Origin: Escherichia phage CBA6
DNA: 4,837 nt
Sequence record: KM389299.1
Reading direction: 5' to 3' (one strand)
Shown here: piece after piece, positions 2,816-3,229 of the stretch
How positions within the stretch are numbered: position 1 is the first letter of the stretch
Layout: each line of letters starts with the position of its first letter
Translations under genes and position numbers: made by a program
Notes under the pieces: generated by a model
Database searches by the model: none
Seen by the model: the letters and a program-made list of their open reading frames with translations, nothing else
Told to the model about the DNA's origin: nothing

Positions 2816-3037
2816 ATGGAAGAGATTTGGAAAGAGTTGTATTTAGACAAAATTGGCATTCATGTATTTGTCAGCAACTATGGAAAAATTAAAAAGCCAG
2901 AACTGACTATACGCCGTAAAAATCAGTTTGGAGAATATGAACAAAAACTACCTGAAAGATATTTGGTGGGCGTAGACAATGGAACTGGTTATTTGCAAAT
3001 CAAAGTAGAATATAAGGGCAAATATTTCAGGAAATAA
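2816..3037 (+). CDS. HNH homing endonuclease, N-terminal fragment (terminated by in-frame TAA 3035-3037)
   Basis: Translation MEEIWKELYLDKIGIHVFVSNYGKIKK...NGTGYLQIKVEYKGKYFRK resembles the N-terminal domain of phage HNH_3-type endonucleases. ATG at 2816 is in frame with the longer track ORF 2774..3037, which starts at a TTG. Confidence 0.55.
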   Translation: MEEIWKELYLDKIGIHVFVSNYGKIKKPELTIRRKNQFGEYEQKLPERYLVGVDNGTGYLQIKVEYKGKYFRK

Positions 3038-3229
3038 CTACACTGGTTTGTCTGGGTTGCATTTAATGGTCTAGTCCCAGAAGGGTTTGAAATAGATCAT
3101 GTTGATGAAAATAAGTATAATTGCGTATTGTGGAATTTACAATTGCTGAGTAAGGAGGCCAACATGAAGAAGATGTTGAAATCCAATCCACATGTGTTAG
3201 ATAATTTGAAGAAACAAAAGGTCCTGTAG
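2816..3229 (+). pseudogene. HNH homing endonuclease interrupted by an in-frame ochre codon; catalytic HNH motif lies downstream of the stop
   Basis: The same frame continues after TAA as LHWFVWVAFNGLVPEGFEIDHVDENKYNCVLWNLQLLSKEAN..., matching the HNH consensus (H-x-x-x-A-F-G, D-H-x-D-x-N, N-L, K-E-N). Frame ends at TAG 3227-3229 inside the 5' end of tRNA-Met. Confidence 0.55.

Follow-up and report, generated by a model that had tools for sequence, protein, structure and literature searches.

A probable recent null allele of an HNH homing-endonuclease gene that overlaps a tRNA gene in Escherichia phage CBA6

The locus and its reading frame

The window considered here, by which we mean the whole analysed stretch of 4,837 nt of Escherichia phage CBA6 DNA (sequence record KM389299.1), is 92-99% identical to the genomes of Kutterviruses (CBA120/ViI-like myoviruses of the Ackermannviridae). 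On its plus strand, positions 2816-3229 form one frame of 137 codons that begins with ATG 2816, is interrupted in frame by TAA at 3035-3037 and ends with TAG at 3227-3229, as read from the translation and the list of open reading frames. Five tRNAs were called in the window by ARAGORN, namely Met/Ile2(CAT), Trp, Asn, Gln(TTG) and Tyr(GTA). Since both ARAGORN and Rfam place the tRNA with the CAT anticodon at 3220-3294, the TAG of the frame coincides with nucleotides 8-10 of this tRNA, just as a preliminary description of this DNA had claimed. The features of the locus are collected in Table 1.

Table 1. Features of the endonuclease locus and the tmRNA-like module, in positions of the 4,837-nt window
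Feature	Position	Strand	Basis or remark
HNH endonuclease, codons 1-73 (N-terminal, presumably DNA-binding)	2816..3034	+	All that CBA6 can translate
Nonsense codon TAA, corresponding to TAT (Tyr74) in relatives; altered base 3037, A here versus T	3035..3037	+	Alignment of relatives
HNH catalytic core, codons 75-137, untranslatable here	3038..3226	+	Pfam HNH_3 and I-HmuI alignment
Native TAG stop, tRNA nucleotides 8-10 (U8 A9 G10)	3227..3229	+	tRNA call and annotation of relatives
tRNA with anticodon CAT; first 10 nt common with the HNH ORF	3220..3294	+	ARAGORN; Rfam, 60.9 bits
Upstream in-frame extension; TTG 2774 is the start in some database records; probably non-coding	2774..2815	+	Alignment with HNH-less phages
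tmRNA-like module	~1300-1490; tag ORF 1362-1397		Also in L015-L019 and IMG/VR loci L020-L138 (~120)

In the translation of segment 2774-3229, the frame reads MEEIWKEL...KYFRK-stop-LHWFVWVAFNG...IDHVDENKYN...KEANMKK...KQKVL-stop. We argue that the true start is ATG 2816, which is also the annotated start in phages CBA120, Marshall and KpS110, because the sequence 2774-2811 occurs in phages that lack the gene and because other alleles have 4-nt gaps there; TTG 2774 was rejected as the start on the same grounds. Scans for promoters and terminators returned counts no higher than those obtained with shuffled sequence.

No uninterrupted frame crosses the catalytic domain of the CBA6 copy, in which residues 74-137, including Asp94-His95 and Asn116, are lost to the TAA at codon 74. 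Reinitiation as a source of the catalytic half was considered and rejected: in the list of open reading frames the next in-frame ATG, GTG or TTG past the TAA is TTG 3128, which already lies downstream of the Asp-His motif, and therefore no catalytic fragment would arise through a restart.

Domains and catalytic residues

The part of the frame that follows the TAA matches Pfam HNH_3 (PF13392) with 48.2 bits (E = 8.5e-13; the gathering cut-off of the family is 24.8 bits), and PF13392 is also the precomputed Pfam annotation of the homologues. This match, together with the translation and the list of open reading frames, bears out two proposals of the preliminary description, i.e., that an HNH frame is split by the TAA at 3035-3037 and that its catalytic motif occupies approximately 3038-3226. 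The N-terminal part gave a weak match to NUMOD4 (E = 0.11), which is below the cut-off. The full-length protein restored by replacing the TAA with Tyr matches phrog_959, "HNH endonuclease", over residues 1-136 with E = 3.2e-27.

Alignment to the DH...N residues of I-HmuI places the catalytic positions at Asp94-His95 (3095-3100) and Asn116 (3161-3163), all of them downstream of the stop. D94, H95 and N102 are invariant among the alleles, while N116 is kept in the seven full-length alleles and P0005 is gapped there. The protein of the intact relatives is, by prediction, composed of a beta-rich N-terminal part followed by an Asp-His...Asn...Asn metal-finger nuclease core. An AlphaFold2 model built from a five-sequence alignment had a mean pLDDT of 35.6 and was unusable for a fold search.

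I-HmuI, the intron-encoded HNH homing nicking endonuclease of Bacillus phage SPO1 (PDB 1U3E), aligns weakly to the Kuttervirus protein (E = 0.05, residues 58-122). The two have in common the HNH_3-type motif ...H.lv...f......vDH.D.NK.NN...NL......N, with the Asp-His pair and the distal Asn kept. They differ in size and setting, since I-HmuI has 174 residues, carries extra C-terminal DNA-binding helices and resides inside a group I intron, whereas the free-standing Kuttervirus protein counts 137 residues. The N-terminal part of I-HmuI-like enzymes is a DNA-binding module.

One base separates the CBA6 gene from some intact orthologues

On alignment, the gene is the orthologue of orf221 of Escherichia phage CBA120 (AEM91905.1, "putative HNH homing endonuclease"), which was described in 2011 as a shortened HNH endonuclease overlapping a "Met" tRNA (PMC3184105); the literature thus already contains the gene, its location and the tRNA overlap. 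The 414-nt ORF of CBA120 is the same as that of CBA6 except for one base: codon 74 is TAT in orf221 and TAA in CBA6, hence CBA6 encodes residues 1-73 only. The surroundings of orf221 are also as in CBA6, with the gene located between a 2-kb gene-less region and tRNA(CAT) and overlapping the tRNA by 10 nt. Identical copies of orf221 are found in Salmonella phages SS3, SS9, STP07, SeKF_64, Mutine and STP-4.

A tblastn search with the restored protein retrieved 29 Ackermannviridae records, each uninterrupted over all 137 residues, and in 10 of them the product is 100% identical to the restored CBA6 protein and has Tyr at codon 74. The arrangement is not a matter of chance, since 29 phage records have this 414-nt ORF uninterrupted. 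Comparison of CBA6 positions 2760-3300 with Salmonella phage SS3 revealed a sole mismatch at 3037 (A versus T; TAA versus TAT), and a T-to-A change at 3037 is the only difference between the ORF of CBA6 and those of SS3, CBA120, Mutine and STP-4. Since this single base separates CBA6 from these four intact alleles, the stop falls on an invariant Tyr codon; Tyr74 is present in all eight aligned alleles, including those that are just 77-87% identical.

These comparisons agree with the preliminary description on two further points. A sense codon had been expected at the position of the stop, and relatives indeed carry TAT (Tyr74) there, Tyr being invariant in the eight alleles. The two halves had been taken as one protein, and CBA120 orf221 and its counterparts in SS3, Mutine, Marshall and KpS110 read through this position with Tyr; the opposite possibility, that the halves are unrelated proteins, is contradicted by intact homologues that span both. 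The dN/dS ratio between allele types is 0.03-0.08 (dS of about 0.2-1.8), which argues for strong, long-term purifying selection on the protein.

The premature stop: null allele, base-call error or readthrough

We consider that the mobile endonuclease gene has in CBA6 probably, with a likelihood of about three in four, undergone a genuine and very recent loss of function. A T-to-A transversion at 3037 would have converted Tyr74 (TAT) to TAA, so that translation would halt after 73 residues and, since the stop precedes every catalytic residue, no active enzyme would be made. Compared with intact orthologues, a disabling mutation (TAT to TAA at codon 74) is present, and no further degeneration or relaxation of constraint was seen over the 414 nt compared with intact alleles. 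Because nothing else has changed in the ORF, the knock-out would have to be very recent. The locus had earlier been called a decaying pseudogene; the disabling change is there, but "decaying" is too strong a word for a copy with exactly one difference from intact ones.

A single-base difference from four otherwise identical alleles, found in one sequencing run only, is also what a sequencing or assembly error would leave behind, in which case the phage would truly have TAT (Tyr) at 3035-3037 and the gene would be intact. A scan with an exact pattern that allowed any two bases at codon positions 2-3 retrieved Mutine (TAT) alone in IMG/VR and nothing in JGI metagenome and GTDB genome contigs. 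We nevertheless regard an error as unlikely. The change is a substitution and not a homopolymer indel, and the TAA is also present in a Logan assembly of reads that is identical to CBA6 over the common 2,900 nt. The contig in question, SRR547957_8, corresponds to CBA6 1938-4837 base for base and has the same end position; given this identity and the same end, the window very likely derives from that sequencing run, and the contig provides no independent confirmation.

Another point against an error is that a nonsense allele likewise due to one base is found in a sample unrelated to this one, hence real null alleles of the gene occur. Positions 1201-1509 of locus L139, from a 69.6-kb Logan contig (SRR29454787), carry a Marshall-type allele whose sole difference from that of Marshall is a change of TGC to TGA at Cys103. 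Because of this independent allele we conclude that null alleles of the gene do arise, and its presence in another sample indicates that such knock-outs recur. Two metagenomic variants are altered in other ways: one (L140) has other sequence in place of the 16 terminal codons and the tRNA, and the second (L141), a divergent allele, differs at its C-terminus but still has its TAG on tRNA nucleotides 8-10. Null and rearranged alleles of the endonuclease gene thus do occur in nature.

A leaky TAA was also considered. Near-cognate readthrough by phage tRNA-Tyr or tRNA-Gln, or a host ochre suppressor, would then supply some full-length active endonuclease. The cluster does encode tRNA-Tyr(GTA) and tRNA-Gln(TTG), both near-cognate to UAA, the original residue is Tyr and the remainder of the frame is intact. 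However, among the stop codons UAA leaks least in enterobacteria, and the stop is unique to one sample; as none of the 29 homologous records has it, it does not represent a conserved recoding site. TAA serves, moreover, as a functional stop of neighbouring genes: it ends ORFs 51-443, 501-647 and 3308-3532, and PHROG families are matched by two of these three (phrog_3788 up to the end of its profile). Genome-wide reassignment of TAA was rejected for this reason.

The cluster also lacks a suppressor tRNA. At default ARAGORN or Rfam settings neither a suppressor tRNA nor a UUA anticodon was detected in the window, and relaxed ARAGORN settings produced just implausible suppressor calls with introns of several hundred nucleotides. 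With the stop unique, TAA a normal stop and a suppressor tRNA missing, recoding or programmed readthrough finds no support. Readthrough, which the preliminary description had put forward as an alternative, is therefore very improbable.

Finally, the split could be deliberate, with the 73-residue N-terminal fragment functioning by itself, e.g., as a DNA-binding protein or repressor that shields the target site. The corresponding part of I-HmuI is a DNA-binding module (from general knowledge and the alignment), and the start codon and its upstream context are retained in CBA6. Against this, the split is present in no other genome (29 records), and the absence of any other change in the ORF means that there was no evolutionary time for a new function to develop. 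Nor do databases hold the product: the 73-residue protein is on record nowhere, and the 87-residue product from TTG 2774 is on record solely in the single-sample contig SRR547957_8. We regard a functional fragment as exceedingly improbable.

A genuine, very recent null allele thus being the preferred reading, the CBA6 allele on its own matters little, since it is an ordinary null allele of a known and uncharacterised homing-endonuclease gene. It can be viewed as a snapshot of the homing-endonuclease life cycle, taken at the first step of its degeneration phase. For annotation, we advise a pseudogene label or a re-check of the base call, with the start at ATG 2816; relabelling of the overlapped tRNA as Ile2 should also be considered.

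Presence and absence of the gene and its presumed homing

The gene is absent from many close relatives of CBA6 (Vi01, Sa157lw, ECML-4, GG32, EP75 and others), in which only the flanks match. These non-carriers have an unrelated stretch of 100-205 nt at the endonuclease site. The sequence common to them and the carriers ends at approximately 2811 and resumes at the tRNA; alignment of carriers with non-carriers puts the left edge of the cassette at approximately 2812, the common sequence stopping four bases before the ATG. The gene is therefore polymorphic for presence and absence at one locus in close relatives, as one would expect of a free-standing homing-endonuclease gene in a tRNA cluster, and the earlier proposal that an endonuclease invaded the tRNA cluster fits this variable occupancy of the same site.

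Taken with the domain matches, the feature is likely to be a free-standing HNH_3-type homing-endonuclease gene located between a gene-less RNA region and the tRNA(CAU) gene. When a relative without the endonuclease gene co-infects, the intact enzyme would, by analogy with known systems, cut that relative's allele near the tRNA gene, and recombinational repair would then copy the endonuclease gene and the first tRNA bases into the cut genome. The CBA6 allele could no longer home and would persist by descent only.

SegB of phage T4 and F-TflI, F-TflII and F-TflIV of phage T5 are free-standing homing endonucleases encoded in phage tRNA clusters. Like the Kuttervirus gene, the genes of these enzymes are small, wedged between tRNA genes and variably present, and they presumably spread in mixed infections, where the enzyme would cut the allele that lacks its gene. 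SegB is a GIY-YIG enzyme, whereas the Kuttervirus gene encodes an HNH protein and has its stop codon inside a tRNA.

The 5' end of the tRNA was compared in 22 related loci, a small sample (L001-L014, L062, L075, L096, L126, L133, L138, L139 and L141). It reads GGTCCTG in 13 of the 14 loci with the HNH gene, which represent three allele types, the exception being L141 with AGCCCCT, and GGCCCCG in all eight loci without it. Positions 3 and 6 of the tRNA are accordingly T in 13/14 carriers and C in 8/8 non-carriers. This pattern is suggestive of a right cassette edge lying within the first tRNA bases or of protective changes in a target site inside the tRNA. Variants of the anticodon stem and the T-arm assort independently of the 5' end in the same 22 loci, which suggests that recombination breakpoints may lie inside the tRNA gene.

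The overlapped tRNA and a possible role of the overlap

The overlap between the ORF and the tRNA is annotated likewise in CBA120, Mutine, FrontPhageNews, Marshall and KpS110, and an ORF end at tRNA nucleotides 8-10 is the native arrangement in every intact allele. The tRNA had earlier been named tRNA-Met. A tRNA with a CAT anticodon does lie at 3220-3294, but it is probably not a methionine tRNA: relatives that lack the HNH gene have a tRNA allele with 93% identity to E. coli genes annotated as tRNA-Ile, and for this reason we consider it probable that the tRNA is an AUA-reading tRNA-Ile2, in which the C of CAU would be modified to lysidine.

The CBA6 allele of the tRNA has a C28-A42 mismatch in the anticodon stem. 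The acceptor stem is paired in carriers, through U3-G70 or U3-A70 (position 70 compensates in some of them) and U6-A67, and because it stays paired the tRNA appears to be kept functional. The tRNA downstream is unaffected by the CBA6 stop, and the old frame persists up to the native TAG.

One can imagine that the conserved end of the ORF on U8-A9-G10 of the co-oriented tRNA is regulatory. Because the stop is inside the tRNA, processing of a co-transcript by RNase P would yield a non-stop message: cleavage at the 5' end of the tRNA would sever the message 7 nt upstream of the stop, and the product would be tagged and destroyed by trans-translation, leaving trace levels of a potentially toxic nuclease. 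The same non-stop consequence was remarked upon for smpB genes that run into ssrA (PMC4131195). We consider such a regulatory role quite improbable. Were it true, the stop at Tyr74 would be one of several ways in which the lineage escapes or silences the nuclease.

The gene-less region and neighbouring elements

Positions ~650-2800 contain no ORF of more than 80 codons, are approximately 95% conserved among Kutterviruses and have a G+C content above that of the coding flanks. A second stretch, 4150-4520, was grouped with this region. In our opinion the larger value of the window lies here, since the 2-kb CBA120-like region, unexplained since 2011, holds a conserved, widespread and unannotated tmRNA-like module along with tRNA-like elements.

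Positions 1069-1172 are predicted to adopt a cloverleaf-like fold with a canonical T-arm (z = -2.4). Each of the segments 1515-1585, 1589-1711 and 4610-4743 has a T-arm hairpin in its predicted fold, and by eye an acceptor-like stem and a CCA-like 3' end can be made out. None of these four elements was called as a tRNA by ARAGORN or Rfam. A search of the gene-less region for a group I intron, GOLLD or ROOL gave no Rfam match at E <= 1.

Upstream of the endonuclease there is an inverted repeat, 2497-2522/2565-2590, formed by a 26-nt pair with 88% complementarity. Rfam miRNA models match at 2497-2590, and these matches were rejected as they merely reflect the 26-nt inverted repeat. A perfect 13-bp long-range inverted repeat, 2579-2591/2776-2788, encloses 184 nt, and one of its pairs has undergone a compensatory change from T-A to C-G in Marshall, KpS110 and GG32. 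The 26-nt and 13-bp repeats have an arm in common, which implies alternative pairings.

Directly after tRNA-Asn, at 3717-4148, a gene for a PD-(D/E)XK nuclease is located (Pfam PDDEXK_5, E = 6.7e-26). It is present in approximately 8 Ackermannviridae records, among more than 300 phage records matching the window, and with so few carriers it could represent a second mobile nuclease gene of this tRNA cluster.

A tmRNA-like tag module

About 1.4 kb upstream of the endonuclease, the same phages carry a tmRNA-like RNA that appears to encode a tag; of all items in the window, this module most deserves a dedicated study. Its conserved core in CBA6 is CAAAAATAATC GCT AAT GAT AAC ACG TTC CTG GCA GTA GCT TAA TAG, which translates as ANDNTFLAVA followed by two stops, while the tag of E. 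coli tmRNA is ANDENYALAA. Positions ~1300-1490 match unannotated DNA with 74-80% identity in phages of unrelated families, namely Felixounavirus, the N4-like phage FSL SP-058, the 9NA-like phage PJ16 and Klebsiella phages. A lambdoid prophage also carries the module, between its Q antiterminator and its holin. Among 5,426 complete E. coli genomes, 756 have it, in most cases on a plasmid.

A degenerate pattern in which only A-N-D/E is fixed recovered at least 120 IMG/VR contigs. In all modules found (126/126), the ORF has exactly ten codons followed by a stop, the main tags being ANDDVVLMAA, ANEEMYLAVA, ANDDLMLMAA, ANDEQFLAVA and ANDNTFLAVA. Across 67 non-redundant copies, compensatory changes preserve the hairpin with the stop codon, the hairpin after it and the pairing of the latter's loop with downstream sequence (for instance, GC in 36 and AT in 31 copies at one pair, and CG in 36 and TA in 31 at another, each canonical in 67/67). 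The layout of these hairpins and of the pseudoknot resembles helix 5 and pseudoknot 2 of tmRNA.

Neither default ARAGORN nor Rfam 15 called the module. Under relaxed settings, ARAGORN called a permuted tmRNA with the ANDNTFLAVA tag amid junk calls. An acceptor stem of the alanine type, with G3-U70, was searched for and not found for the module, and no annotation or description of it was present in the tools, records or literature found. Surveys of phage tmRNAs name only those of mycobacteriophages and Bacillus phage G (PMC4131195; PMC11915505), and a Kuttervirus genome announcement lists zero tmRNAs (PMC10112204).

Repeated cassettes bounded by the inverted-repeat stems CAACAGGTAAGAGCA ... TGCTCTTATCGTTG are seen in L015, L018-L020 and many IMG/VR loci. 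They enclose variable inserts, often with a T-arm-like hairpin. As the tag module sits between such stem-bounded cassettes, stem halves on either side could also pair with each other across the module.
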